Shown here: piece by piece, positions 2,851 through 28,023 of the stretch
How positions within the stretch are numbered: position 1 is the first letter of the stretch
Layout: each line of letters starts with the position of its first letter
DNA from: a candidate division WOR-3 bacterium
GTDB lineage: Bacteria > Hydrothermota > Tepidihabitantia > SM23-42
DNA length: 64,000 nucleotides
Assembly (NCBI GenBank): GCA_027026255.1
Contig: JALVOT010000014.1
Location: 23,986 to 87,985 of the forward strand
Reading direction: 5' to 3'
Program-made: the position numbers and the translations under genes
Notes under the pieces: generated by a model
What the model was told of the DNA's origin: nothing
The model's input: the letters and a program-made list of their open reading frames with translations, nothing else
The model's database searches: none

Positions 2851-3033
2851 ATGATTTTTTCTAAACTTCTTAACATCAATCTTTATTCTGGATTTAAAAA
2901 TCGCCATTCAGGAGGGGTGGCGAGTTGTGGTTCAAGTGTTGAGGAGGCATTTAAAAATCTGAAAGAGGCAGTGGAGCTTTATCTTGAAAATGCCCGTGAA
3001 TTAGGATTACTGGAGCAAATTGAAGCTGAATGA
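2851..3033 (+). CDS. HicB-like (UPF0150) antitoxin-family small protein, no HicA partner
   Basis: C-terminal stretch SCGSSVEEAFKNLKEAVELYLENARELGL resembles the HicB/UPF0150 motif (GC.SQG.TLEEAL.NAKEA.ELYLE). No toxin ORF adjacent. Confidence 0.35.
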   Translation: MIFSKLLNINLYSGFKNRHSGGVASCGSSVEEAFKNLKEAVELYLENARELGLLEQIEAE

Positions 3034-3078: not shown

Positions 3079-3513
3079 TTATTTGCCAAAGTCAATTTTT
3101 ATATTTATATCAGAAGGCACACGAAATCGTAATAAAATTTTAGAATCACCACTTAAGCGTTGTTTTTCAGCTCTAAATAGTATATTGAGATGTATAGAAT
3201 TATCATTTGTTTTTTCTGCTTGATTAGTAGTATTAGAAGAAAAATGATGTAGGTGTGCTTTTATATTGAGATATCCAGAAAAAGTGTTGTTCAATTTATC
3301 GATTGTTAAATAGCCAATAGCATCGGTTGTTCCTTCTGACAAGGAATATAGAAAACCATTAGCTTTATGGTAAAGAAATGATTTTATGGAGTCAGATTCA
3401 ATATTTACTGAGTCCATCAGGCAAGTATTAAATTTAATACATAAGAAATAATTATGTTGTATAACATCAAGATCATACATACTTGGTGATGCATAGTATC
3501 CATAGATTACCAA
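3079..3513 (-). CDS. Hypothetical protein, possibly an orphan toxin-tip remnant (TTG start)
   Basis: 144 aa ORF lying directly 3' of a degenerate Rhs core-end relic (3522-3545) but out of frame with it. No recognisable motif. Confidence 0.3.
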   Translation of the reverse strand: MVIYGYYASPSMYDLDVIQHNYFLCIKFNTCLMDSVNIESDSIKSFLYHKANGFLYSLSEGTTDAIGYLTIDKLNNTFSGYLNIKAHLHHFSSNTTNQAEKTNDNSIHLNILFRAEKQRLSGDSKILLRFRVPSDINIKIDFGK

Positions 3514-3521
3514 TACAGAGT

Positions 3522-3545
3522 AGTTTCCTTAAGGGGTTATTGATA
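3522..3545 (-). repeat. Degenerate relic of the Rhs core 3' end (encodes ..NNPLR..)
   Basis: ccttaaggggttattga matches the block encoding VNNPLRF at 7555-7571 and 5624-5640. Confidence 0.4.
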
Positions 3546-3562
3546 CCTTTAGTAACATAGTA

Positions 3563-4024
3563 TCAAATTCCTACAACCAAAAGCTGCAGGAATTTTGGCC
3601 CCATCCATAGAGCGAACCAGGTATTATCACCCTTAATTCGCAACCAGAACCACATAAGTAGAATTACCGCTATTGAACCAAGTAAACAATACCAGCCACT
3701 GATGGTTAAAATTAAACGTAATAACAATGGCGGTTCGAATTTCTTGCTGGCCTTACGAAGTTTAAGAGAAAATATAAAGATGAATATTCCGATCAGAACC
3801 AGAGGTGTTAAACCGATACGCAAAGGGGTAGTATCAGCAACCGTTGGGAATAAATCTGCATACCGTGACCAAGCATCCCAGAGTCTTAATACATATTCAA
3901 AAATGGTATTGAAAATAAAACGTGCGAGTATAGAGTATGGGAAATAGAAAGCAAAAGCACTAAAGAGAATTATAACTGCCCCTAAGAGAAATTTTTTAGT
4001 GAAGAAGTCTTTTATTTGCAGCAT
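3563..4024 (-). CDS. Small polytopic membrane protein, candidate Rhs-toxin immunity protein (paralogue of 4556-5050)
   Basis: 153 aa with about 4 TM segments; shares blocks with the 164-aa protein (PLRIGLTPLVLIGI vs SLRIALTPLLLIGI; ISGWYCLLGSIAVILLMWF vs ICGWYCLVMTSIVILAMWF). Lies just 3' of a cassette-junction relic carrying an intact promoter. Confidence 0.5.
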   Translation of the reverse strand: MLQIKDFFTKKFLLGAVIILFSAFAFYFPYSILARFIFNTIFEYVLRLWDAWSRYADLFPTVADTTPLRIGLTPLVLIGIFIFIFSLKLRKASKKFEPPLLLRLILTISGWYCLLGSIAVILLMWFWLRIKGDNTWFALWMGPKFLQLLVVGI

Positions 4025-4112
4025 TAATGCTCCTATTTATAAAAGTGTGAATTGACCCATTTTTTAGCAAAATAATATTCATCTTAGAGCGAATTTTCAC
4101 ATATTTCCTATC

Positions 4113-4225
4113 TGATAAGTAGTTTATCCCATTTTCGTCAAGTCTGCTGCCCGTAGTCTTTAATTTCTTCTCCATCTTTCCTTATTGATAATTATAGCAA
4201 AATTATCAAGGATTTCAAGATTTTT
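4113..4225 (-). repeat. Degenerate relic of an orphan Rhs-CT cassette 5' junction (leader plus first ~25 codons, no toxin domain)
   Basis: About 75-80% identical by eye to 5733-5840. Minus strand reads MEKKLKTTGSRLDENGINYLSDRKY, compare orphan cassette MKNELKTFSKELDENNLNYFCQRYY. Confidence 0.55.
4191..4218 (-). promoter_or_regulatory. Conserved cassette promoter (TTGAAA, 16 bp, TATAAT, 15-nt leader) in the relic cassette
   Basis: Same box sequence and spacing as the orphan-cassette promoter at 5803-5830. Confidence 0.5.
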
Positions 4226-4555: not shown

Positions 4556-5050
4556 TTAAGGCCCAGCTGGCATATAAATTGGCGCTCCGCTTAAATAGCC
4601 ATTCAGAAAATGGCCATAAACCATTATAAAAACGCTTGATTTATCAGGCCAAGTAAATGCACGAATTTGTATATCAAACCACATCGCAAGAATTACTATG
4701 CTTGTCATAACTAAACAATACCAACCACAAATCAATGAAATCCATCTAAGATTTATTAAACGATTAACTTTGCATATTGAAGATAATTTCTGTAACAAAA
4801 GAAAAAGTAGTATACCAATGAGTAGTAAAGGTGTAAGAGCGATACGTAAAGAATTTATACTGTTGGGAAGTGCTGATGTTGACAACCAGAACCTGGTTGT
4901 ATAATTCCATATAGTAACAAAGATGAACTTGGCTAAAATAGGGTATGGCAAATACCCGGCGATAAAAGCAATTATTATTGTAATTATGCCGATTGCAGCT
5001 CTATTCAGAAAAAGCTTATGTTTTGCGACTTCACCCAGTGCATTTATCAT
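4556..5050 (-). CDS. Small polytopic membrane protein, candidate immunity protein for the orphan Rhs toxin
   Basis: 164 aa; start overlaps the stop of the orphan toxin ORF (5047-5050), the usual toxin-immunity arrangement; paralogue of 3563-4024. Confidence 0.5.
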   Translation of the reverse strand: MINALGEVAKHKLFLNRAAIGIITIIIAFIAGYLPYPILAKFIFVTIWNYTTRFWLSTSALPNSINSLRIALTPLLLIGILLFLLLQKLSSICKVNRLINLRWISLICGWYCLVMTSIVILAMWFDIQIRAFTWPDKSSVFIMVYGHFLNGYLSGAPIYMPAGP

Positions 5051-5787
5051 TTTCTATAGAAATAAAAATAAACCCATCTATTTGCGAAGAGATGGCCTGA
5101 ATTATTTGCTTTTCTGTGAATTATGTTCCACCAAGATAGGTCAGTCCTTGTCCAACCGTGGGCACGTAGCCAAATAATTTCAGCAAATTCATGGGCAAAA
5201 GATTTTCGTAGACTCCAAGTCTTATTCCATTGCATTTTATTAATTTTAAACTCCCATATTGTCAAAATCTCATTTTTTGGATTACCTGCAACAGATTTTC
5301 CCAGGTGTTCAACAATCATATATTCAAATTTAGACACTTCAGCCCAATAATCTATTGTGGCAAGAAATCCAGAATTTTCTTTTAACCAAGATATTGCATT
5401 AAGAATATCATCTAAGGTTATTTTTCCCCCCGGATGATAACTTTCCCAATCATCATATGTAATTTGATCCAGCATCTTTTCAAGACTGCGCATTGCGTTC
5501 ATTAACTTACTTTGTCTTCTCAGTTGTTCCATATGAATAAATGTCCACCATGAGGGGTCGCCAGCGTCTACGGGACTTTCTTTTTTAGATTCCATCATTC
5601 TTTCACCAGTAGGGTCGGTAAACCTTAAGGGGTTATTGACACAATAGGCATAGGGAGATGATGCAGGGGAATTCTCAGGGTCCAACCTCAAAAACCTCCC
5701 AATCTCTGCCTCATAATACCGCTGGCAGAAGTAGTTAAGATTGTTTTCATCAAGTTCCTTGCTAAAGGTCTTTAATTCATTCTTCAT
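5047..5787 (-). CDS. Orphan Rhs C-terminal toxin cassette (Rhs core tail plus unrecognised toxin domain)
   Basis: 246 aa. N-terminus MKNELKTFSKELDENNLNYFCQRYYEAEIGRFLRLDP...YAYCVNNPLRFTDPTG duplicates the end of the full-length Rhs core (FDENNLNYFCQRYYEAEIGRFLSLDP...YAYCVNNPLRFTDPLG), then diverges completely. Confidence 0.65.
   Translation of the reverse strand: MKNELKTFSKELDENNLNYFCQRYYEAEIGRFLRLDPENSPASSPYAYCVNNPLRFTDPTGERMMESKKESPVDAGDPSWWTFIHMEQLRRQSKLMNAMRSLEKMLDQITYDDWESYHPGGKITLDDILNAISWLKENSGFLATIDYWAEVSKFEYMIVEHLGKSVAGNPKNEILTIWEFKINKMQWNKTWSLRKSFAHEFAEIIWLRAHGWTRTDLSWWNIIHRKANNSGHLFANRWVYFYFYRK
5612..5762 (-). repeat. Direct repeat of the Rhs core 3' end (orphan copy)
   Basis: 41-bp block 5612-5652 is identical to 7547-7587; about 70-bp block 5690-5762 is near-identical to 7640-7712. 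The spacer between blocks differs. Confidence 0.8.
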
Positions 5788-5802: not shown

Positions 5803-5830
5803 ATTATAGTAAAATCAAGTGATTTTTCAA
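5803..5830 (-). promoter_or_regulatory. Internal promoter of the orphan toxin cassette (TTGAAA, 16 bp, TATAAT, 15-nt leader with AAGGA)
   Basis: Read on minus strand: -35 at 5825-5830, -10 at 5803-5808, ATG at 5785-5787. Confidence 0.5.
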
Positions 5831-5955: not shown

Positions 5956-6747
5956 TTAATGAAACACACCTCGTATATTCAATATTACCGATATTAATAC
6001 GAAAATATTAAAGCTCACAAAATAACCAATCGGTAATAACAAAGAATGTCGTTTCCAATATAAGTAAATTACGAGCAGTCCATTAAATAAAATCCAGATT
6101 GTGTTAATGATACTAAACTGATTGTGCGAGAATATTATCCCATGGCACAATGTGAAAATTATGGTAGTAACTATTGCACCAGTTTTAATACCCATCTTTT
6201 TAGCAAAAGCAGGGAATGCAAATCCTATGAAAAATATAGATTCTCCAATTGGTCCTATGATACTTACAATAATTGCGCGTGAGAAGTTTATGTAATAATT
6301 AATTTGATTGGAGGCAATAAACTTTGGTACTTTTGGTAAAATATTGTTGCCTGTAATTATGATTGGTAGTAATAATATAAGTTTTAAACATAAAGCCAGG
6401 ATAAATCCAGTAAAAAAATAAATTAGCCACCTATCGGATCGTAAACCTAAAGTTCTTAGTGATCCAAATTTTCTCAGTTTTATCCATAATATAGGCACAA
6501 ATGTGTAGAGAAGTTGATTAATCATTAAGCATAATATAACTATATACCAACGTTTTTTAAGATAAGTTAATAATATTGAATAAAGTTCTGAATTTTTTTC
6601 GAAATGTGAGAAATCTATATGTGTAGGTGAAAAGATTTTAAATGAAATTATGACCAAACTCAAATATATTAAAATAATAAGAAAAAAGGTCACGACGACA
6701 TCAGTTATACCCCATTTTACATTAAGTATCTCATTAGATTTGTTCAT
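5956..6747 (-). CDS. Polytopic membrane protein with degenerate CPBP/Abi-like motifs, candidate immunity protein for the full-length Rhs toxin
   Basis: 263 aa, about 7-8 TM. GPIGESIFFIGF and FTLCHG...SHNQF loosely match CPBP motifs (EExxxR, FxxxH, HxxxN) with catalytic positions substituted. First gene 3' of the Rhs toxin; extremely AT-rich. Confidence 0.4.
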   Translation of the reverse strand: MNKSNEILNVKWGITDVVVTFFLIILIYLSLVIISFKIFSPTHIDFSHFEKNSELYSILLTYLKKRWYIVILCLMINQLLYTFVPILWIKLRKFGSLRTLGLRSDRWLIYFFTGFILALCLKLILLLPIIITGNNILPKVPKFIASNQINYYINFSRAIIVSIIGPIGESIFFIGFAFPAFAKKMGIKTGAIVTTIIFTLCHGIIFSHNQFSIINTIWILFNGLLVIYLYWKRHSLLLPIGYFVSFNIFVLISVILNIRGVFH

Positions 6748-6951: not shown

Positions 6952-9900
6952 TTAGCTTAAGCCCCTGGGAATAGGAAGAATTTCTTTTTCCTCTTTTTTG
7001 GTGGGTTCAGACGGTTTTCGCCACCAGGCTGGTGGAAACATATTTTTATAGTAATCATCGTTCCACATTTCATCGAGTTCCTCGATTGGTAATTTATTAT
7101 AACCACGAGGAGGATAAACGATATTCTTCGGATGATGTATATTCTCAAAAGCAGGCTGCCTTTCTTTATGTTTTTCTGGTTGAGGTAGATTAGGTTCGTT
7201 CGGATAGAAAGATGATTTGGGGATAATCTGTTCTAATGATTCGATGAAGTTCTCGCCAAGAATTATGTATCCAGACAATTGGAGTATAATACCTACGTAA
7301 TGTGTTATGGGGTGAGGGTACGCTTCAAGCATTACTCCCAAATTAATTAATTCTATTTCAAGCTGTGAGCCTTTCACAGTTTCTAACGCTTGACTGCCCA
7401 AATTTTTTGTTGTATTATAGAACACTTTTATTTTTGTTTCAATATTTGCTTCAGAATTTTCAAAAAATAGATTCAACCCTGATTCATGGCCAATGAATTC
7501 GTAATAATCGTTTGGCGACATAAAGAGAGGTACCTGCAGCCCCAATGGGTCGGTAAACCTTAAGGGGTTATTGACACAATAGGCATAACGGTTCTGGGAT
7601 TGAGGAACTTCAATATAACCACCAAAGGGATCAAGAGACAAAAACCTTCCGATCTCTGCCTCATAATACCGCTGGCAGAAGTAGTTAAGATTGTTTTCAT
7701 CAAATTCCTTGCCGGTGAAGGTATGGGTGTTATCAGCAGTACCTGATTTTGTTATTTCACCGAATGGATAATAATATGCAGTCCAGACCACTGAACCCGA
7801 TTCATCGGTCATCTTCCTTGATGAACCTAAAACATCACAATGATAAAAGGTGGTATCTGCACCATCAATCCTTGCAATATGTAATCCACCGGCATAGACA
7901 TACCTTGCCAGTATTGAACCATCCGGGGAATATTCAATAAGCGGATTTATACCGTCATAAACATAGTAAATCGTATAGTCAGTTGTTGTATTAATTCCGG
8001 ATGTAGTTATCTCACCATAGCCGTTGATTTCACCACCGAATGTTTTATTGGTGCCGGGAAAGACATCAACTGCATTTGAACCACCCTGATGCAGGGTATC
8101 AACATTCACAGGTAAACCAGGGTCAAAGGTTGAGATGGTCCACCGCAGGGGACCATAATGATTTAATAACTGTTTGGAGATCTTTATCTGGATACTGCCA
8201 TCAGGACCAATAATCCGTTCCACTGTCATACCAGAGGGCATTACAGTCTTTGTGCCGTCTGCCCTGTAAAAACCGTATTCTCCATCGTCTATATATAGAC
8301 AGTATTCCCAGGCAGCATTTTTTGGCACCTTTGTCTTCATATCTTCTGGTAAGGTAATTCTACCCGAATTTGGAATCGTGTCAAGGTCTAAGGTGATAAA
8401 GAGCTTTAATCGGCTGACCTGGGCAAAGATATATCGGTTGACGACGGTAAAGATATAATACCGGGCGGTATTTTTTATGTAGACTTTTTCAATATCAAGT
8501 CCTTTATTATATACTGTATCCGGACCGGATGATTTGAATCCTAAGTCGTTTGCTGCATCAGTGAATAGGGTTCTTGAAGTTATCCCTGTGCCGGGAGTTA
8601 ATTTATGATAATGTTTTTTGACCCTGAGGCCGGAACTGTTATAGGCATAATCAATGGTTTCAGGACCTTTTTTATAATAGATTAGCCGATTATTCCAGTC
8701 ATAGGCAAATGAATCGACCAAACTGCCTGAGGAATTGTTGCGTTTAATAATATTACCATTGTCATCATAATAATACTCATAATCTCTGTGGTCGGTTTTT
8801 AGCCGGTTGGTATTTGACCAGTATGAATATGAGTTACCATTTTTTGCAGTGCGGTTTCCTGTTTTGTCATAGCTGAATGATTGGATACCTGCTAATTGGG
8901 TGACCGCGGTGAGTCGATTCAGGGCATCATAGGTAAAGGTCTGGGTGTATCTGCTGTTAAGATAGTCGGTAATTGAATGGATATTGCTGTTATCTTCGTA
9001 AGAATAACCGAGTTTTAGAATATCACCGGTTTTATAAGCCCTCACCAGGATTGGACGAAGCCGGGAATCATAGGTTATTGTATCCACTACCCCGTTATCA
9101 TAACTTAGCTTTACAATCTGACCTGCAGGATTATATTTAAAGGTTGTTAAAAGACCGGGGACGGATTTTATCTGGCCGAGTCTATTGTATCGGTATTTTA
9201 TTTTGTCGTCTGTTGATAAATAGATCAGGATGCACTGGTTCGCATAATTAAAATTATAGGTAAACGATTTTTCACCACTCAGACCTACAATATTAACCCT
9301 TTTGAGTCCTAATCTGCCTCGATCATCATAGTAGTATGTTATTGAATCTATTCCGCAGGTAACAACTTTACTCAGTCGACCCGTAGGATTAGCCAGTTCA
9401 TAAGGAGTTGGTCCTCCGGTCGTAATATCATAGGTCAGTCTGACTTTATCTGCCCAGGTGGAGCCATTATCGGTTGAAAGTTCTATTTTGGTCAAACGGT
9501 TGATATTATCATAGGTATACCGAACCCATCCATTCGGGTCTTTTTTTAGCGTTAAATTTCCCAGGTCATTATATTCATCATAGAGCACATCAACTGGGTT
9601 ACCATTGTAATAATATGAAGATGTTGCATCCGGACCATCCACACCACGCAATCTGCCAAGGGTATCATAATAGTATTTTGTCACCCTCCCTTCGGCATCG
9701 GTCACTTTTGTCAATCTGCCGAGGGTATCATATTGATAACAGGTGCGGTTATTATTGGCATCAATGATTGTATCAATTGCGCCGTAGGCATTATAAATAT
9801 GGATGGTTTTATTACCCTTTTCATCAATGATGGTGTCGGTATTGGCATAGTATTTTACCTGAGAATATTTACCATCAGGATGGGTTATTTTTATAATGCG

Positions 9901-10257
9901 TCCCAGAGCATCATACTCATAGGTGGTAATTTGAGACCAGGAAGGTGAACTATAACTGTATGATGTACCGAAGATTGTATAGGGGTTACAAACTGAATCT
10001 TTTTTACTGTTTTTATTATAAGAAATATTCCGGATAATCGTCCGGGCGTTATCAAAATCAAATTTTTTGGTTTGAATCAGTTTACCAAATCCATCATAGA
10101 AGTTTTTACTTACTATCCAGTATGTAGCCCCAGCTTCGTCGATGAAGTCTATTTTTATCGAATCAATAACTGCAGATGGAATTTCAAAGTCTTTATAGGT
10201 AATTCTCCGGGATGCTGAAGATTCATTGGGCTGGAAGGTTTTTATTAATCGGCTCAT
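6952..10257 (-). CDS. Rhs/YD-repeat protein with C-terminal polymorphic toxin domain of unrecognised family
   Basis: 1101 aa with many YD repeats (YDALGRII, YDTLGRLT, YDALNRLT). Rhs core end FYHCDVLGSSRKM...YAYCVNNPLRFTDPLGLQ, then about 210 aa unique C-terminus ending in a Pro/Lys-rich tail. No signal peptide or PAAR-like N-terminus visible. Confidence 0.85.
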   Translation of the reverse strand: MSRLIKTFQPNESSASRRITYKDFEIPSAVIDSIKIDFIDEAGATYWIVSKNFYDGFGKLIQTKKFDFDNARTIIRNISYNKNSKKDSVCNPYTIFGTSYSYSSPSWSQITTYEYDALGRIIKITHPDGKYSQVKYYANTDTIIDEKGNKTIHIYNAYGAIDTIIDANNNRTCYQYDTLGRLTKVTDAEGRVTKYYYDTLGRLRGVDGPDATSSYYYNGNPVDVLYDEYNDLGNLTLKKDPNGWVRYTYDNINRLTKIELSTDNGSTWADKVRLTYDITTGGPTPYELANPTGRLSKVVTCGIDSITYYYDDRGRLGLKRVNIVGLSGEKSFTYNFNYANQCILIYLSTDDKIKYRYNRLGQIKSVPGLLTTFKYNPAGQIVKLSYDNGVVDTITYDSRLRPILVRAYKTGDILKLGYSYEDNSNIHSITDYLNSRYTQTFTYDALNRLTAVTQLAGIQSFSYDKTGNRTAKNGNSYSYWSNTNRLKTDHRDYEYYYDDNGNIIKRNNSSGSLVDSFAYDWNNRLIYYKKGPETIDYAYNSSGLRVKKHYHKLTPGTGITSRTLFTDAANDLGFKSSGPDTVYNKGLDIEKVYIKNTARYYIFTVVNRYIFAQVSRLKLFITLDLDTIPNSGRITLPEDMKTKVPKNAAWEYCLYIDDGEYGFYRADGTKTVMPSGMTVERIIGPDGSIQIKISKQLLNHYGPLRWTISTFDPGLPVNVDTLHQGGSNAVDVFPGTNKTFGGEINGYGEITTSGINTTTDYTIYYVYDGINPLIEYSPDGSILARYVYAGGLHIARIDGADTTFYHCDVLGSSRKMTDESGSVVWTAYYYPFGEITKSGTADNTHTFTGKEFDENNLNYFCQRYYEAEIGRFLSLDPFGGYIEVPQSQNRYAYCVNNPLRFTDPLGLQVPLFMSPNDYYEFIGHESGLNLFFENSEANIETKIKVFYNTTKNLGSQALETVKGSQLEIELINLGVMLEAYPHPITHYVGIILQLSGYIILGENFIESLEQIIPKSSFYPNEPNLPQPEKHKERQPAFENIHHPKNIVYPPRGYNKLPIEELDEMWNDDYYKNMFPPAWWRKPSEPTKKEEKEILPIPRGLS
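7547..7712 (-). repeat. Rhs core 3'-end segment repeated at 5612-5762 (master copy)
   Basis: See 5612-5762. Confidence 0.8.
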
Positions 10258-10260
10258 AAT

Positions 10261-10288
10261 AGATTACCCGGAACTTTAAGGATGTAAA
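10261..10288 (-). promoter_or_regulatory. Possible promoter of the Rhs gene (TTTACA, 16 bp, TAATCT, 3 nt before ATG)
   Basis: Correct spacing but a weaker -10 than the other promoters in this window. Confidence 0.3.
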
Positions 10289-10464
10289 TGTGTGGGATGT
10301 ACTGAGGGCGATTGGCATTCAAAGTGCAGTAAATATCGTTGTTGATAAGAATTTTGAGGGTAGTATTACAGTTTATCTGGGAAAGGTTACTTCAGAACAG
10401 GGATTGAAGAAGCTGCTTGAGGCAAACGGTTTTCTCCGAAGAAAAAAGAGAATTATTTTTTTGT
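10263..10464 (+). pseudogene. Gene fragment with secretin-N/STN-like motif; no canonical start, runs into stops
   Basis: Frame reads ..NFKDVNVWDVLRAIGIQSAVNIVVDKNFEGSITVYLGKVTSEQGLKKLLEANGFLRRKKRIIFL*, resembling the N-terminal domain motif of secretins and TonB-dependent receptors (DVLRAL...NIVVD...G.VT..L......AL..LL.ANGL). Only about 60 codons. Confidence 0.3.
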
Positions 10465-10652
10465 AAAGAAAAGATTAAAAGAACGATTAAAAAAGTTTAC
10501 AGCCGCTGATGGTAAACTCGGTTTGAATGTGAAGAATGCATCGAGAGATGAAAATTATTTCCGGTATCGGATCGGGGTTTGCATCTGAACTTTCCATCCT
10601 CCAGATTTTGTTTTTTTAACTCAGGATAAAAATTCACTGCTCCACTTATTGC

Positions 10653-10680
10653 TTGATTTAAAGAAAATTATATGTATAAT
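10653..10680 (+). promoter_or_regulatory. sigma70-type promoter (TTGATT, 16 bp, TATAAT) with 21-nt leader and AAGGAGG for the Yip1 gene
   Basis: Boxes and SD read directly upstream of ATG 10702. Confidence 0.5.
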
Positions 10681-10701
10681 AAAATACTAAGGAGGTAGAG
10701 T

Positions 10702-11259
10702 ATGTTAGAAAAGATTAAAGCAATACTATTTCAACCCAAAGAGACCTGGCCCAAGATTAAGGCCGATGGTGAGAATTTCGGTGAGGTCCTAACCAGGTAT
10801 GCGGTGCCTCTGGCAGCAATCCCTGCTTTTTTTGGTCTACTCGGTCATTCAATATTCTTCCGGATATTCTTCGGTTTTTCATTAATCTGGGCGATTGTCT
10901 ATTATATACTGATACTTATTGGACTCTATGTTGAGGGTATTGTGATTAACGCCCTTGCTCCTTCATTCGGTTCAAGACAGGATTCAACTGATGCATTCAA
11001 ACTTGCGGTCTATGCCTATACCCCGGTTTTTGTCGCCGGTATATTGAACATCTTCCCTATGTTGGGGATCCTGGCTTTCCTCATTTCTCTTTATGGATTG
11101 TATCTTTTATACCTGGGTCTGCCGGTTATGATGGAGACACCAAAGGAAAAGGTCATCGGTTATCTTGTGGTGACTATTATCGTTCTGATAATCATATATT
11201 TTATAATCGGCGCAATTTCCACGGCAATTCTTTCTATCTTCTGGAGGCCGCTCTTTTAA
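10702..11259 (+). CDS. Yip1-family membrane protein
   Basis: 185 aa, 5 TM, layout typical of Yip1/DUF1282 proteins; strong SD. Confidence 0.6.
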   Translation: MLEKIKAILFQPKETWPKIKADGENFGEVLTRYAVPLAAIPAFFGLLGHSIFFRIFFGFSLIWAIVYYILILIGLYVEGIVINALAPSFGSRQDSTDAFKLAVYAYTPVFVAGILNIFPMLGILAFLISLYGLYLLYLGLPVMMETPKEKVIGYLVVTIIVLIIIYFIIGAISTAILSIFWRPLF

Positions 11260-12260: not shown

Positions 12261-14018
12261 TTACATTTTACGCCGTCCCTGAAATGTAAAGTTCTCATCA
12301 AGCCATCGCTTTACGGTCCGGGCAGATTCATATTTTTTTATTGCATTGAGATAGATATAGTTTTGCTGCGTCATTTTTTTGACCACCTCAAGGTTGAATT
12401 TCACCCTTGGATCATTTATTATCGGCGGTATTCTGATTTTCAGTTTATTGAAATTAAACGGTTGATATCCTGTAGTATCCTTTTTTATTTCGTAACAGAG
12501 ACCCCGGGGAACAGCGTGGTATGGTTTCAAGACAAAGGCAATATCATAATCAGGAAACGGCACGGCTAAGAATACACCATTGTCAAGTCGGGACCTGGTC
12601 ATAGCATTTAATAGATTGATGAATTTTTTCTGAATCAAAACAGGGTCATACTGAAGTCCATATTCAAATTTTCTCAATTCAACAAGATAGTCTTCAGTCT
12701 CTTTTTTTATCTGATTATAAAACTTTGGATATTCATTCTTGAGATATTTGATATACCAGGTTCGACGCAAAAGTTCTTTATCAACAACAATGAGGTCAGG
12801 TCTTATATTTTTTACTTTTCTCAAGTACATTATCGGTGAATAAATATCCCAGTAGGTAGTGATCAGCAAGCTGTTTTCTGGTAATTGCGAAATATGAGCG
12901 GCGCCGAATTGAAGCCCGAAGTGGTTATTTCTCAGGGTGCAGGATGCATAGTTCACGATGGGAAATATCGCGGCGATAATAAAAACAATCAGGGGTTTCA
13001 GATGGCGCGATAATAATTTTAAGCCGTATGCAGAGACAATGATTAAACCGACAAATCCTGGAATGTAATAGGATTCAATATCAGGAATTGAATAATTTAT
13101 TGCATAGAAGAGATTTAAGAGGATAGTAATTATAAAGAGCCAGAACTCTTTTCTTTTTTTAATGTATAGTGTGTAAAAACCCAGAATCGGAATTGGAATC
13201 AATACAAATAAAAAACCACGGGAGATTATTTTGAGTCCATTTAAAAGATTATTCAGTATCTCTTTAACTGATAAAGAAAACATCCATACTTGATACTGTT
13301 TGCCCGTAATATGCCAGAAAAGTCTTTGAAGATTATGTGTATTACCCCAGGCGATTTCTGCCCCGGCATTGGTTCTGATTAAAAGATAGAGATAAGGGCT
13401 TATGCCGATAAAAAAGAGGATGGATCCTGAGATGATTTTTTTTAGTCCCGGTCGCCAGGTAATTATGGTGTATAATAAGACCGGTATGGAGAGGGCAAAG
13501 ATTATAATGTGGTTTGTAAAGCTCAGGCCGATTAGATACATTATTATATAAAATGTGCGGTCGGTTTTTTCCTGATTGAGGGTATAAAAAATCAAGGTTG
13601 CAAAAAGAAGGGTGAAGGAATAGACCTCATTGGTTATCGCAATGCGCCAGACAATTGGTGCAAAGGCAAATAACGAAGTGATGATTACAGGGTGGATTTG
13701 ATTTCCAAGGATTTTTTGGGAAATTTTGTAGATAAAAAAGACTGAGATGATTGAGAAGAGAGCCGAGAGGAGGTTAAGTCCAATTATCGGTTCAGGAAAA
13801 AGATGGGCGAATGGATACGAAATGATTGTATATAATGGATAGCCAGTAGGATGGGCGATACCAAGGCAGCAGCTGACTGTGGCGAGTTCTCCGGAATCAA
13901 TCGTATAAACAGTCGGGCAGAGCGAGTAAAGATATATCAGAAAGGCAGCGCAGATAAATATAATTTCCGGAAGAAAATATTTTAATTTAATGATGACCTT
14001 TGCTGGATGGGTGCAGCC
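12261..14018 (-). CDS. DUF2723-like polytopic membrane protein (glycosyltransferase-C fold-like); 5' end anomalous, no canonical start before TTG at 13595
   Basis: ORF track gives 12261-13595, but the frame stays open and coding-like up to a TAA at 14019-14021 (...KYFLPEIIFICAAFLIYLYSLCPTVYTIDSGELATVSCCLGIAHPTGYPLYTI...). This carries the DSGEL / HPTGYPLY block I recall as the conserved N-terminal region of DUF2723 proteins. Confidence 0.5.
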   Translation of the reverse strand, partial: GCTHPAKVIIKLKYFLPEIIFICAAFLIYLYSLCPTVYTIDSGELATVSCCLGIAHPTGYPLYTIISYPFAHLFPEPIIGLNLLSALFSIISVFFIYKISQKILGNQIHPVIITSLFAFAPIVWRIAITNEVYSFTLLFATLIFYTLNQEKTDRTFYIIMYLIGLSFTNHIIIFALSIPVLLYTIITWRPGLKKIISGSILFFIGISPYLYLLIRTNAGAEIAWGNTHNLQRLFWHITGKQYQVWMFSLSVKEILNNLLNGLKIISRGFLFVLIPIPILGFYTLYIKKRKEFWLFIITILLNLFYAINYSIPDIESYYIPGFVGLIIVSAYGLKLLSRHLKPLIVFIIAAIFPIVNYASCTLRNNHFGLQFGAAHISQLPENSLLITTYWDIYSPIMYLRKVKNIRPDLIVVDKELLRRTWYIKYLKNEYPKFYNQIKKETEDYLVELRKFEYGLQYDPVLIQKKFINLLNAMTRSRLDNGVFLAVPFPDYDIAFVLKPYHAVPRGLCYEIKKDTTGYQPFNFNKLKIRIPPIINDPRVKFNLEVVKKMTQQNYIYLNAIKKYESARTVKRWLDENFTFQGRRKM

Positions 14019-22573: not shown

Positions 22574-24048
22574 TTACATTAATTCTAATCATCTATACCC
22601 TGTTTCTTATAATTCTCTTTGGTTACTCGATTCATGCATTTATACTTTTAAATTACTATTATAAGTTTCACAAACATCCGGTGCATCGAAAAAAGAAAAA
22701 GAAGGTTTTAAAGAATTTTCCTGCGGTAACAGTCCAACTGCCTATTTATAACGAAAAATATGTGGTGCACCGTTTAATAAAGAGTGTTGTGGAGCTGGAT
22801 TATCCCAGGGAAAGGCTGGAGATTCAGGTGCTTGATGATTCTGATGATGAAACTACGGAGATTGTCGAGCACCTTGTGCAGATTTATCAAAAGGATGGCT
22901 ATGATATAAAACATATAAGAAGGGGGTCGCGCCGGGGTTTTAAGGCAGGTGCATTGCAGTATGGGCTTGAGATGGCAAAGGGTGAATTTCTTGCAATTTT
23001 TGATGCCGATTTTGTTCCGCCCAGAGACTTTCTTACGGAGTTATTACCGGAATTTGAGGATCAAAATATCGGCGGTGTTCAGGCACGCTGGGGGCATTTA
23101 AATGATCGGGCGTCTTTTCTTACCCGGGCACAGGCAATCGGCCTTGATAATCACTTTGCAATAGAACAGCGTCTTCGTTTTTTAGCAAACTGTTTTATCA
23201 ATTTCAATGGAACCTGTGGAATCTGGAGGAAAAAAGCAATTATTGATGGTGGAGGATGGCACAGTGATACCCTTGCTGAGGACCTTGACCTTTCTTATCG
23301 GGTTCAATTAAAGGGCTGGAAGATAAAATACCGCGAAGATTTTGCGGTTCAGGGAGAATTACCTGAGAATGTTGCAAGTTTCCGCATCCAGCAGAATCGC
23401 TGGGCAATGGGCACAATCCAGGTTGCCCGTAAACTATTAATAAAGGTTTTGAAATCGAAACTCAGGCCGATTGCAAAGTTTGAGGCGTTTGTTCATCTTA
23501 CCTGTCATATAAATTTTCTTGCTATGCTTGGTCTGGCAATATTTTCGCCGATTATTGTCTATTTAAAGGTTGAAGGGCTCGCCCCGACCGGTTATTATAT
23601 ATTCGCTTCGTTCTTTACGATTGGGGCATTTGGTTATCCTATTCTCTATTATCTTTCCCAGCGTGAGCTTTATAAAGACTATATTCACAGGATTCCATTC
23701 ATCGCCGGGGTGATTGCCTACTCAATGGGTTTATCAGTATCCAACACCAAGGCGATAATTGAGGGCTGGCTTAAAAAACATCATATCTTTACCCGAACCC
23801 CAAAGTCCGGAGGAAAAAAACAGGGGTACCGTCCCGAATGTAAATTCTTTGTCCCTCTTGTTGAACTCCTTTTGGGGATTTATATGCTTTCGGGTCTGAT
23901 TTATGTCGTTGTCCACTTCCAATTAATTCTCATTCCCTTTCTACTACTCTATTGTTATGGATTTTTGAGTTTGGGTGTCCTTTCCCTTAAGGATTTAATC
24001 TTTGTTCCCAGATTTAAGGAGGTTGCATGCTCAAGAGAGAACTTTTAG
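22570..24048 (+). CDS. Membrane-embedded processive family-2 glycosyltransferase (cellulose/chitin/hyaluronan-synthase-like)
   Basis: 492 aa; N-terminal TM, D/DxD region ([13 protein letters not shown]), QxxRW motif ([10 protein letters not shown]), C-terminal TM bundle. Confidence 0.8.
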
Positions 24049-24197
24049 ATATTCTGGTCTGTCCAAAGTGTAAGGGTGAATTGGAATATGACCAGAAAAA
24101 TCAGGAGTTAATTTGTCACAAATGTAAACTTGCCTATGCAATAAAAGATGATATTCCTATTATGCTTATTGAAGAGGCAAGGAAATTGAATGATTGA
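24027..24197 (+). CDS. Trm112/YcaR-like small zinc-ribbon protein (56 aa; below ORF-track cutoff)
   Basis: [56 protein letters not shown]; AAGGAGG SD at 24016-24022. Confidence 0.6.
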
Positions 24198-27100
24198 CCT
24201 TGCACTGATAGTTTTCGTTATTGCAGGGACAGATATCCGAACAGTTGAAGACGGTGTTATAGTATCATTTTCAATGACAAAGGTTGAGGCGGAAAGTCTT
24301 AAAATCCCTGATGCGCGGTGGTTAAATAAGGTCGGTGATCCGGCACTGCCTTGTTTACACTATAAATTCGGTATCCCACAGAATGGTGAGGTTGCGGTTT
24401 CGATACTGGAGAATGATGAGGCGGTGATCGATGGTCAGAAGATTGACCCAGTGGTTGAGTTGGGTATTAAGGAATCGGCACCCCGGGATACAGAATTATT
24501 CCGCAGTGAAGTCTATAAAGAAAATAAGTTTTTCCCTCACAATTTGGTTGTTGTTTCCGAACCGGGATATCTGCGTGATCTCTATACAGTTGATGTGCGG
24601 ATTAATCCGGTCCGTTATAACCCGGTGAAGAACCGGGTGCGTTATTCGAGAAGATTTATTATAAAAATAAAGTTTAAAGGTAAGCCGTTCATTAATGCTC
24701 CTTTTGATACTACATTTGAAAGGGTAATGCGCCATCTGGTTGATAATTATGAGCAGTGCCGTCTCTGGCGTTTGACACCATCACGGAATGGGACAAATCC
24801 ATTTGCCCAGGGAACCTGGTTTAAGATAGCGGTTGAAAAAGAGGGGATTTATCGGATTGGCTATAAAGAGATTAAGAATGCCGGGATCGACCCTGCCCAA
24901 TTTGACCCCAGGACGATGCGGATTTATACGGCAAAATTTGACCTCTTAACACGGAGCGTTCCATTGCCTGATTCACTCGATTCATTGGTTGAAATCCCCT
25001 GTTTTGTTCAGGGTGAATCAGATGGGGTGTTTAATAAAGATGACTATCTTGTTTTCTACGGCTATCCAGCAAGCCATTTTATTCCTGATACCTCAATTTC
25101 CTGGTTTTATAATGGATATGCAAAAAAGAATATCTACTGGTTTACATTTGGTGGAAAATATGGTAAGAGGATGTCGAGGGTAGATGCCCGTTATAATGGA
25201 GACCCTGTCGATACCCTGGTACAGGAGGTGCTGCATTTTGAAGAGGATAATGGTAATCCGACGCGTTCTGGCATAAACTGGTACTGGCAGGAGGTTTCCC
25301 CGGGTGAGGGTCAGGGCGCTGAAACCTCGGTTAATATTGAACATCCCTTTGCAGCGGGAGATGCCCGTATCAGCGCCAGCCTTTTCGATTCAATCGGGGT
25401 GAGCGGTCCATTTATTTATCGTTTTTCCGTAAATGATAATATAGCTTATAATGAGACCTTATCGCTCAGTTCTCACTGGTCATTTCCTCCCCAGTATTTT
25501 AATATCGAGACATCCTTAAAAGGTGATTCCTCTATTTTTAAGATTGAACTCATCCGACCCCAGGGGGTGGAAGGCAAGATGCTTGCCTGGTTTAATGCCC
25601 TTGATATTCTTTATCAGCGCCTCACCCGATTGACAGAACCTTTCCATGCATATTTTTCGGCACCCGAAGATTACTCTATCAAATGTGATGATGCAGAAGA
25701 ACCGGTTTTTGTCTTTGATATTTCTGATATACAAAATCCCAGGATGTTGTATAATTTAAAGCTGGATAATGGAAAACTTTATCTTTCAGGAACCTGCGAT
25801 TCTTTTCAGCTGCTCTATTTTTGTAAACTTGGTTCGACTGAACCGGTTAAATTGATTCCCGCCAAACCGGGAAAATTACGCGAGCATTCTTCTGGATGCC
25901 AGTATCTTATAATCACCCATCCGAAATTTTCTAAGGCGATAATGCCCCTTGTGCACTACCGCAGCCAGGACTATACAGTTAGGGTGGTGAATATTTATGA
26001 AATCTATGATGATTTTTCATACGGAAAGTTTGACCCCTTAGCGATTAAGCATTTCTTTTATTATGCCCTTAATAACTGGGATGTCTTTCCGAGTTTTGTG
26101 CTTTTGGTGGGTGACGGCACATACGATTATAAGAATAATCTTCATAAAGAAAATCCTCCCAATTATATTCCGATGTATGAAACAGGGAGTCTTTTAATCG
26201 GTAATCCCGGAATTCCTCCGAATACAATTTATGAAGGTGAATATACCGATTTTGGAGGCGGCGAGTCAGTTGCCTCAGGCAGAATCACGGTCAGGACCAA
26301 TGCCGAGGTCAGGGACTTTATTGATAAGTTAATTACCTATGAGACGAAAAATATTGACGGTATCTGGAATCAAAGGATTATCCTTGCCGGTGATGATGAG
26401 TATGCGGGAAACCACTGGGAAGGACCGGATATGCACTGTGGCGCCTGTGAGGCTATATTCAGGAATGTCCCGGATTCTCTTTATAACTTCGCCAAGATTT
26501 ATATGATAAGTTATCCGCCGTTTCCACCCTACGGAGGTCAGGTCAATAAGGTGAATGCCCGCAAGGCATTTATTCGGGAATTGAATAAGGGCGGTTTTGC
26601 CGGAGTCTATTTCGGCCATGGCAATACTCATCAGCTTGCCCATGAAGGGCTCTTCTATGATATTTATATTCCCGAAATAAATAATGGGAGACGATGTTAT
26701 TTCTTTTATTTTGGTTCCTGCACCGTAGGAAGGTTTGATGATTCGGATTATGAATGTATCGGTGAGGAATTTGTGCGGATTAAAGACGGCGCAATCGGCA
26801 CGATGGCATCAACCGGTGGCACCTATGTGCAGGGTAATGTGGCTATCGGTAATACTCTTTTTAGACTGATGACCTCACCGGATAGTGATTTGACAATGGG
26901 CGAGTGTTTTCGCATCGCCAAGGTGTATGGAAGCCCGTCATATCTTCTTATCGGTGAGCCGGCAACGAGATTAAGAAAAATAAAGACAAAAATGACATTG
27001 ACTGCCTTGAGTGATTCATTGAAGCCCCTTCAAAGGTTGAAAGCGGTCGGGTCTGTCCCTTATTATTATCTTGACGCCTTTGTTCGTGATACTACACATA

Positions 27101-28023
27101 TCGAGAAGTTTGATGCTACAACCCAGGATAAGATTAGTGGTCATGTCTATCGGTTGGTCCAGACCGGACGGAATGCCTGGAAACCGTTTGATTATCAAAT
27201 AGATGGTAAAGAGATATATTCAGGATTCTGGGATGATGATACTGCGAAGATGATTGTTCCGCAGGTATCTACGGTAAACCGCCCGGTAGTAAAATTGACC
27301 TATTGCGCCAATCGCAAATCTGGTTCGCTCGATTCAATTCTGATTTATGGGGTGGCATCACCTTCATCTGATGATCAGGGACCGCAACTAAAACTTTATG
27401 ATCAGGCAAGGGTTTTACAGAATGGGGATTGGGTGGATAAGGATTTTATCCTTACCGGTCGGGTTGCTGATATGAGCGGCATTAATCTGCTAAATTCAGT
27501 TGAGGACATCAATCGCGGTTTTTATCTCTATATAAATAATGATATCGATAATAGGATTGATTTAAGAGACTATTTTACCTATGATAAGAATTCCTATACA
27601 GATGGAACATTTAATGTGAAGATTAGCCTGCCTAATCCGGTTGATACAATTAAGATAAATGTTGCGGATAATAATTATAATCAGACATATCAGAAACTTA
27701 TATTAAATACCGATATTTATGAATCGGTTAAGATTTCTAATTTTCTGGTCTATCCAAATCCGATTACAAATGACGCCGGGGTGTGGTTTACATTTAACCT
27801 TTCAAGTTCAGCCCTGGTTAATTTAAAGGTCTTTACAATTGCAGGACGACTTGTAAAGACAATCGATGATTTCTACTGTCGAGCCGGTTATAATCAGAAA
27901 TTCTGGGATGGTCTTGATGATTCGGGTCAGCCTCTTGCTAATGGAGTTTATCTGGTCAGGGCATATTGTGAGAAGGCTAACGCCCGGACTGAAGTGATTG
28001 AAAAATTTATTATCGCCCGATAA
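24190..28023 (+). CDS. Gingipain-like cysteine peptidase (family C25) with T9SS-type C-terminal sorting domain
   Basis: 1277 aa; C25 catalytic dyad context [10 protein letters not shown]...[15 protein letters not shown]; C-terminal about 80 aa ([20 protein letters not shown]...[10 protein letters not shown]) resembles the T9SS CTD beta-sandwich. Confidence 0.7.

Follow-up and report, generated by a model that had tools for sequence, protein, structure and literature searches.

How does a large Rhs toxin leave the cell when its gene encodes no recognisable export element? The question is raised by an open reading frame (ORF) of 1101 aa on the minus strand of contig JALVOT010000014.1 (assembly GCA_027026255.1), from a candidate division WOR-3 bacterium. 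The ORF lies at 6952-10257 of the stretch analysed here, which comprises contig positions 23,986 to 87,985 (64 kb; "the window" denotes this whole stretch). A previous sequence-only reading took it for a full-length polymorphic toxin without a delivery domain, with an unassigned C-terminal toxin domain and with no secretion genes nearby, leaving toxic activity and export route as puzzles. Homology searches and comparison with related loci suggest a different answer, to which we assign a probability of roughly three in four: the ORF would be the 3' remnant of a Sec-exported WOR-3 Rhs toxin gene of ~1,900 codons, in a decaying locus with orphan cassettes.

By its domain matches the 1101-aa ORF is unquestionably an Rhs protein. 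Pfam returns RHS_repeat (PF05593; E 3.4e-36, five stretches) and RHS (E 2.5e-11), NCBIfam returns TIGR01643 (E 9e-23) and YD_repeat_2x, and the Rhs-associated core (Rhs_assc_core, TIGR03696) matches residues 829-907 (E 6e-20). The end of this core (...NNPLRFTDPLGL; in fuller form ...YAYCVNNPLRFTDPLGL) can be aligned to the corresponding region of Rhs and TcC proteins of solved structure (E 1e-32 to 1e-6). It is closed by a PxxxxDPxGL motif, at which cleavage is predicted, and DPLGL is the presumed autoproteolysis site. An insert of ~210 aa in the YD shell (residues ~556-765) resembles the glucodextranase C-terminal/CBM9 beta-sandwich fold. Searches with Pfam and NCBIfam, together with hydropathy analysis, found no N-terminal trafficking domain (signal peptide, PAAR, LXG or similar) in the ORF: no signal-peptide-like stretch is visible at its N-terminus (12-residue Kyte-Doolittle maximum 1.19), and PAAR, prePAAR or VgrG-type matches are absent from the ORF, the window and the loci of relatives. 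On the YD repeats, the cleavage-associated motif and the missing signal peptide and PAAR region, the sequence-only reading was therefore correct.

It was mistaken about completeness. A whole-protein search retrieved close relatives from metagenome-assembled genomes of candidate division WOR-3 that are 49-60% identical and 1,740-1,970 residues long (P numbers denote proteins and L numbers loci below), and the closest of them extend 700-800 residues further at the N-terminus. Alignment to the long relatives is unbroken from Met1 to the end of the core, with Met1 pairing with residue 809 of P0002 (60% identity), 820 of P0005, 796 of P0003 and 764 of P0132. Met1 falls inside the YD repeat YDNMNRLTKxYxPNE (in P0005, YDNMNRLTKTYLPNES), so that the ORF begins partway through a repeat unit, and two codons 5' of it, at 10264-10266, is an in-frame TAA. 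Because Met1 aligns internally in longer relatives and sits mid-repeat, we conclude that the ORF is not full-length. The shell portion that has been kept corresponds to P0002 residues 809-1707. A tblastn search with the N-terminal 830 residues of seven relatives did not find the missing 5' part, including the DUF6531 region (residues 99-185 in full-length P0002), elsewhere in the 64-kb window.

What the lost part carried is suggested by the relatives. Nine of the 13 long or N-terminal relatives examined have a hydrophobic, signal-like N-terminus, assigned by eye and from hydropathy rather than with a dedicated predictor; these N-termini are charged and then hydrophobic, as in Sec signals, with 12-residue maxima of 2.4-3.7 compared to 1.19 in the ORF. 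In two of the exceptions, P0004 and P0132, the ORF calls begin past a signal peptide that is visible in their 90%-cluster mates P0130 and P0016. The N-terminal trafficking element of the WOR-3 Rhs family would thus be a signal peptide, which the window copy appears to have lost along with ~800 shell residues. The sequence-only reading had itself named, as a finding that would overturn it, that the ORF is a fragment of a larger gene with a known delivery domain in its N-terminal part; the ORF is such a fragment, and most relatives start with Sec-type signal peptides. With a delivery element presumably removed by truncation, the apparent puzzle of the missing export domain goes away.

Could the 1101 codons nevertheless encode a complete, functional toxin that leaves the cell by an unknown and perhaps new route? 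In favour of this, the frame is open over all 1101 codons, two other ORFs of ~1100 aa (P0006 and P0008) begin near the same position, and close to the N-terminus there is a weak Pfam match to DUF6443 (E 0.0026). The Pfam name of this domain gives no function; it is found at the beginning of some Rhs proteins of Bacteroidota. In full-length P0002, however, DUF6443 sits mid-protein (850-921). Moreover, P0008 (L033) represents the distal portion of a gene that a single in-frame TAA has split, and P0006 (L032), which starts ~15-20 residues further in and shows no Rhs homology in the 119 nt to the contig end, reads as another truncation. The same observations led us to reject a natural short isoform of ~1,100 aa as well as a TcB/TcC-like two-gene architecture, both of which the P0006 and P0008 starts had brought to mind. 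In L025 the Rhs gene is cut back to residue ~1421 while the start of the adjoining secretin gene is intact, and together these cases indicate that 5' truncation of Rhs genes is common in the WOR-3 lineage. Given also a Met1 that falls within a repeat and aligns with residues 764-820 of longer proteins, and the proximity of a secretin pseudogene (five nt; see below), which leaves no 5' untranslated region or promoter region of its own, a complete toxin is largely refuted already and seems to us most improbable.

The DNA beyond Met1 provides the second line of evidence for truncation. The homology to Rhs proteins runs as far as 10257-10260 and that to secretins begins at 10263, with only five nt (10258-10262) in between. 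Reading away from the Rhs gene on the plus strand, 10263-10472 encodes ITRNFKDVNVWDVLRAIGIQSAVNIVVDKNFEGSITVYLGKV... and matches residues 22-91 of a 574-589-aa secretin (51-54% identity, E ~1e-15); the match goes on in a shifted frame at 10430-10552, where it covers residues 78-118. The intact homologues of 574-589 aa contain GspD N0, STN, Secretin_N and Secretin domains, whereas no intact secretin ORF (N0/STN plus C-terminal Secretin domain) is found at 10263-10552, only the frameshifted residues 22-118. In the P0002 (L006/L007) and P0003 (L002/L003) loci, which belong to the two closest long relatives whose loci were obtained, the secretin gene is divergent from the Rhs gene and lies 212-380 bp upstream of the Rhs start. 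Because a decayed secretin adjoins the Rhs ORF here and the two genes are divergent neighbours in relatives, we conclude that one deletion of ~2.8 kb removed both 5' ends. Arithmetic against L002 and L006 gives a size of ~2.7-2.8 kb, and this single event took the first 795-808 codons of the Rhs gene, codons 1 to ~21-34 of the secretin gene and the intergenic region that the two had shared. The window locus likewise has neither the remainder of the secretin nor the seven other cluster genes (~6.7 kb in L006), and a Yip1 gene starts at 10702. The earlier statement that the window holds no secretion genes thus needs qualification: intact genes for type VI, type IX or type II secretion systems (T6SS, T9SS, T2SS) were not found in the 64 kb (nor T6SS genes in the loci of relatives), but a secretin pseudogene fragment abuts the ORF.

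Two observations count against the remnant reading. The first is that the junction is known from metagenome assemblies, which probably derive from the same reads. A chimeric join at 10258-10262, with intact Rhs and secretin genes in the real genome, would produce the same picture, and repeat-rich Rhs genes are prone to misassembly in metagenome-assembled contigs such as this one. However, a 40.6-kb ENA scaffold and a 312.6-kb NCBI contig both carry the identical protein with identical neighbours. The secretin remnant also has a frameshift of its own, a second truncation and substitutions at invariant positions, none of which a chimeric join would yield. Compared to five intact secretins it is 48-55% identical and departs at residues that are invariant in those five, while pairwise identity among the distinct intact secretins is 61-73% for the same stretch (97% for the near-identical pair L009/L021). 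Since its identity is below that between intact copies and invariant residues have changed, the decay of the remnant is genuine. In addition, 5'-truncated Rhs genes recur in relatives, e.g., L025 and L032, and we regard an assembly artefact as very unlikely.

The second observation is that the 3.3-kb Rhs ORF has no stop or frameshift, while the adjoining secretin remnant has visibly decayed. For this reason the Rhs part may have been truncated recently, may be under selection or may have been refreshed by gene conversion, and some function is possible. Dating of the deletion by comparing remnant decay with the intact Rhs ORF relies on 67 aligned residues, which is too weak to decide.

With these reservations, the remnant reading can be set out as follows. 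The ancestral protein would have had a signal peptide and a DUF6531-containing N-terminal region, followed by a long YD shell with the glucodextranase-C-like insert, a core cleaving after DPxGL and a toxin of 194 aa. The junction shows that the ~2.8-kb deletion fused Rhs codon ~808 to secretin codon ~22, so that each gene lost its 5' end and the intergenic (promoter) region between them disappeared; the rest of the secretin and the PilM/N-PilO-pseudopilin cluster is lost as well. A consensus scan, the only method applied, found no sigma-70-like site on the minus strand of 10258-10700. Lacking a signal peptide, about half of its shell and a promoter-like site upstream, the product presumably cannot deliver its toxin as is, and the remnant would be a silent or decaying cassette. 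Together with the orphan cassettes downstream it may still donate its C-terminal domain (CT) and immunity module by recombination, and the immunity gene may still protect the cell.

The orphan cassettes themselves (Table 1) support the notion of a locus in decay. The first, starting MKNELKTFSKELDENNLNYFCQRYYEAEIGRFL..., has lost its 5' part and retains the last ~60 core residues, a different CT (CT2) and a probable immunity gene. It shares core DNA with the main gene in two blocks: 5689-5762 is 96% identical to 7639-7712 (74 nt), and 5612-5652 is 100% identical to 7547-7587 (41 nt). L010 has the same combination, with homologues of both CT2 and the adjacent 164-aa membrane protein (42% and 36% identity, respectively). 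Further downstream are a degraded second orphan start (MEKKLKTTGSRLDENGINYLSDRKY...), a 153-aa membrane protein that is a 39%-identical paralogue of the 164-aa one and likely an orphan immunity gene, and a third remnant whose 144-aa ORF has a homologue following an Rhs fragment in L025. The GC content drops from 0.40 in the Rhs shell to 0.28-0.37 in the CT and immunity modules. The 1101-aa ORF resembles an orphan cassette in its truncation and shared repeats, but no intact rhs gene lies upstream of it. At the edge of the Rhs island, adjoining the pst operon, a 60-aa ORF (2851-3033, plus strand) gives a weak HicB-like antitoxin match (E 5.5e-4, below threshold).

This arrangement raises the possibility that the remnant is an archive, recombining with an intact Rhs paralogue elsewhere to switch tips while the immunity genes are expressed meanwhile, a scenario that overlaps with the decaying-remnant reading. 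An ORF that stays intact next to a decayed secretin would fit, as would the 96-100% identical core DNA of remnant and orphan 1, the promoter-like site TTGAAA-16-TATAAT just upstream of orphan 1 (5803-5830, consensus scan) and the several Rhs copies per locus in L006, L009 and L020. However, there is no intact Rhs paralogue within the 64-kb window, and we consider an archive possible but on the unlikely side. As a remnant, the locus matters little in itself: a decapitated Rhs gene with orphan cassettes is the expected wreckage of polymorphic-toxin turnover.

We next turn to the C-terminal domain of the ORF (CT1), which comprises 194 aa after DPLGL rather than the ~210 aa estimated originally. 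Its moderately hydrophobic N-terminal part has a conserved PH..T..G.ILQL.GY motif; further conserved features of the family are SL..I..P..S, an HH pair and a Pro-rich tail (YNK.PI..L.E.W.D ... F.P..WR..P ... PIP). CT1 differs from the CTs of most relatives. The earlier impression that it matches no recognisable toxin family holds: at E values up to 10 there is no match in Pfam, NCBIfam or PDB (PDB being searched with phmmer), and a profile of the CT1 family has none in PDB or Pfam. Structure prediction, likewise proposed at the outset, gave a pLDDT of 37 for CT1 alone (AF2 without alignment), too low to be of use.

CT1 at first also appeared to be a singleton, with nothing returned by a word-indexed search of 5.8 billion cluster representatives and only the query by phmmer against 1.84 billion 50% representatives. 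This was overturned by local phmmer searches against the members of 90% clusters. P0132, a near-full-length Rhs protein of 1866 aa that aligns with the 1101-aa ORF from residue 764 to its end (54% identity), carries a CT with 31% identity to CT1 over the whole 194 aa (50 bits). CT1-type CTs are also present on the short fragments P0133-P0135 (55-56 bits), and part of one on the fragment P0131 (25 bits). P0131-P0135 sat behind the 90%-cluster representative P0016, and because the CT is missing from P0016, both large searches missed the homologues. On these alignments CT1 belongs to a small family that is uncharacterised and has so far been met only on Rhs proteins of the WOR-3 type. More generally, homologues can hide behind cluster representatives. 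The verdict "no homologue in billions of proteins" was wrong for CT1, and the P0016 cluster is a caution for any such result on polymorphic toxin tips.

What might CT1 do? One candidate is a divergent beta-beta-alpha-metal (HNH-type) nuclease, with a conserved HH ... N ... E in the tail; CT1 and the P0132-type CT have HH, YNK and L.E.W in common without any change, at HNH-like spacing. Yet even profile searches give no HNH-family match in Pfam, NCBIfam or PDB at E <= 10. The tail YNKFPI...REG.YD moreover ends the different, unrelated and HExxH-like CT of P0013 (hhalign probability 50%, E 1.6e-4), where HH is absent. Because it recurs there without HH, the tail looks like an accessory module, weakening the nuclease idea. 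Also, a polytopic membrane immunity protein, such as the candidate encoded next door, is atypical for nuclease toxins, and we judge an HNH nuclease improbable. The Pro-rich tail of ~60 aa (YNK[FL]PI..L.E.W.D ... WWR.P) is located at 6955-7161 in the window, ~700-764 in P0013 and ~2160-2245 in L025; common to at least two to three otherwise different Rhs tips, it may be a modular accessory element.

The gene starting 204 bp downstream of the Rhs ORF encodes a 263-aa polytopic membrane protein of the CPBP/Rce1-like family (PF02517, 40.2 bits versus a cutoff of 22.4; NCBIfam CPBP matches are weak) and is the candidate immunity gene. Database searches for homologues at E <= 1e-5 returned the query only, a threshold that was probably too strict. 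Using tblastn against the relatives' loci, a homologue (31% identity, E 6e-19) was found in L025, downstream of a truncated Rhs gene that has a CT with a glycine-zipper hydrophobic segment, AVASIGAVMIVAGALTGQFEFIVIGAACGIGGTAGMLM. CAAX/Abi proteases have been repeatedly tied to immunity against membrane-active bacteriocins, according to the passage of PMC9298176 that cites Kjos et al. 2010. CT1 probably pairs with a CPBP-type membrane immunity protein. As for its activity, the glycine-zipper CT ahead of the L025 homologue and the analogy to bacteriocin immunity lead us to propose, tentatively and at less than even odds, that CT1 is a membrane-perturbing toxin neutralised by the adjacent CPBP protein.

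Several findings speak against this proposal. Between CT1 and the L025 CT that precedes the CPBP homologue, no homology is detectable beyond a short tail motif: the end of the L025 CT, GYNHMVNEFWSTYGHYSGMHWWRPP (GYN..E.W..WWR.P), is similar to the CT1 tail by eye, and the hhalign comparison is not significant. The canonical EExxxR and HxxxN motifs of the window CPBP protein look degenerate by eye. The 19-residue Kyte-Doolittle maximum of CT1 is 1.36, below the usual transmembrane threshold, making a transmembrane helix unconvincing, and the AF2 run mentioned above yielded no usable model. If the pairing is correct, Abi/CAAX-type immunity would be directed not only at peptide bacteriocins but also at toxins delivered by Rhs proteins.

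The secretin at the junction leads back to export. In relatives it belongs to an eight-gene cluster encoding a PilM/PilN fusion, PilO, a 142-aa protein, a 450-aa protein (with a weak GspK-like start), two prepilin-type proteins (GspI-like matches), a 189-aa protein and a PilQ/GspD-like secretin; an ATPase and a platform protein are absent from it. The cluster is head-to-head with an Rhs gene at L002/3, L006/7, L009, L021, L025, L026 and L033 and, counting the window remnant, at eight of the 12 distinct loci with enough upstream sequence; it is absent at L004, L008 and L023/24. Its orientation varies, being secretin-proximal at some loci and PilM-proximal at others. In L006 and L009 Rhs genes are present on both flanks of the cluster, and in L020 two Rhs genes are head-to-head with nothing between them. 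The 2012 survey of polymorphic toxins lists signal-peptide Rhs proteins under "T2SS/Sec-dependent", without a signature neighbourhood gene in its Table 1 (PMC3482391), and RHS-repeat genes beside pilus genes have been noted in Bdellovibrio (Bd0109, bd1292 and bd3309; PMC3818213).

If functional, which we consider doubtful, the linkage would provide a concrete candidate for the passage of signal-peptide Rhs toxins across the outer membrane of diderms. The bolder proposal, that the cluster is an outer-membrane export machine dedicated to these toxins and that CT1/CPBP is a new membrane-toxin/immunity family carried by it, seems to us similarly doubtful. If it were true, the window would represent what is left once the machine has been lost and the gene for its cargo decapitated. 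The linkage could instead be inherited synteny or reflect an insertion hot spot, possibilities that 12 loci cannot separate.

Two further features were observed near Rhs genes or the cluster. In L002/L003 a C25 peptidase borders the PilM cluster. In addition, the loci of six relatives (positions in Table 1), but not the window, have a conserved ORF of 117-127 aa on the opposite strand near the Rhs gene, for which no Pfam family is recorded.

The rest of the window is otherwise housekeeping: a pst operon, the Rnf complex, Mfd, trehalose synthesis, glycosyltransferases, LptE and a C25 peptidase. The latter, a gingipain-like protein of 1277 aa (24190-28023), has a C-terminal FlgD_ig domain. A 444-aa membrane protein (12261-13595, minus strand) gives weak TMEM260-like and exosortase EpsH matches, both below threshold. 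No tRNA genes that could mark an integration site were found in the window.

Table 1. Positions of the features discussed. Numbering is that of the window, except for the last row, which uses the numbering of the relatives' loci.
Feature	Position	Strand	Remarks
Third remnant	3079..3546	(-)	'..GINNPLRK' core-end relic (3527-3546), then 144-aa ORF in another frame
153-aa membrane protein	3563..4024	(-)	likely orphan immunity gene
Degraded second orphan start	3996..4175	(-)	DNA repeat
164-aa membrane protein, probable immunity for CT2	4556..5050	(-)	start overlaps end of orphan 1 (5047-5050)
Orphan Rhs cassette 1	5047..5787	(-)	core end plus CT2
CPBP/Rce1-like membrane protein, candidate immunity for CT1	5956..6747	(-)	263 aa; PF02517
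5'-truncated Rhs ORF	6952..10257	(-)	1101 aa; counterpart of residues ~764-820 onward in relatives
CT1 plus stop	6952..7536	(-)	aa 908-1101; helical hydrophobic N-part, Pro-rich tail of ~70 aa
Rhs-associated core domain	7537..7773	(-)	aa 829-907, ends DPLGL; TIGR03696 and core ends of solved structures
Insert in YD shell	7963..8592	(-)	~210 aa, ~aa 556-765
Deletion junction	10258..10262		between Rhs and secretin homologies
Secretin pseudogene remnant (N0 domain)	10263..10552	(+)	first part in frame, second part frame-shifted
117-127-aa ORF in relatives	L002 17099-17452; L006 17722-18081; L008 ~9100-9327; L020 ~2515-2808; L025 ~7947-8255; L032 4353-4736		opposite strand near Rhs

How does this locus compare with known systems? 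The closest parallel is with Sec-dependent Rhs/YD toxins (Zhang et al. 2012, PMC3482391; WapA-like), with which it shares the YD shell, the DPxGL core end, a CT that differs from those of most relatives and is followed by a putative immunity gene, and orphan cassettes; the WOR-3 relatives have signal peptides, and neither PAAR nor VgrG. Unlike those toxins, the window copy has no signal peptide and lacks ~800 N-terminal residues, and the WOR-3 family has the glucodextranase-C-like shell insert and the secretin/pseudopilin linkage in eight of 12 loci. The locus is also similar to displaced rhs-CT/immunity cassettes (Jackson et al. 2009 and Poole et al. 2011, as cited in PMC3818213), which likewise consist of a 5'-truncated rhs that keeps core end, CT and immunity gene, with near-identical core DNA that could serve as recombination substrate. 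Compared to the cassettes described there, the 1101-aa fragment is unusually long and would be a decapitated main gene rather than a copy downstream of an intact one, and the deletion here would also have taken the 5' end of a neighbouring gene.

The core end is shared with Rhs effectors of T6SSs as well (PDB 8H8A/8H8B, 7Q97 and 8QJB/8QJC; Tse5, 8CP6; Tse15, 8UY4), at E values of 1e-32 to 1e-20. In contrast to these effectors, the ORF has no PAAR, prePAAR or VgrG-binding region, and T6SS genes are found neither in the window nor in relatives' loci. The putative immunity protein recalls Abi/CPBP (type II CAAX protease-like) bacteriocin immunity in that a polytopic Rce1-like protein is encoded directly after the toxin gene, and a homologue follows another membrane-type Rhs CT in L025. 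It differs in that its partner would be an Rhs-delivered CT in a diderm candidate phylum rather than a Gram-positive peptide bacteriocin, and in catalytic motifs that appear partly degenerate by eye. Finally, the Bdellovibrio RHS-repeat proteins Bd0109, bd1292 and bd3309 (PMC3818213) provide a precedent for the linkage of YD-repeat genes to type IV pilus/secretin genes. Bd0109 is pilus-regulating and is not presented as a toxin in that study, whereas the WOR-3 proteins, with their variable CTs, have the make-up of canonical polymorphic toxins.

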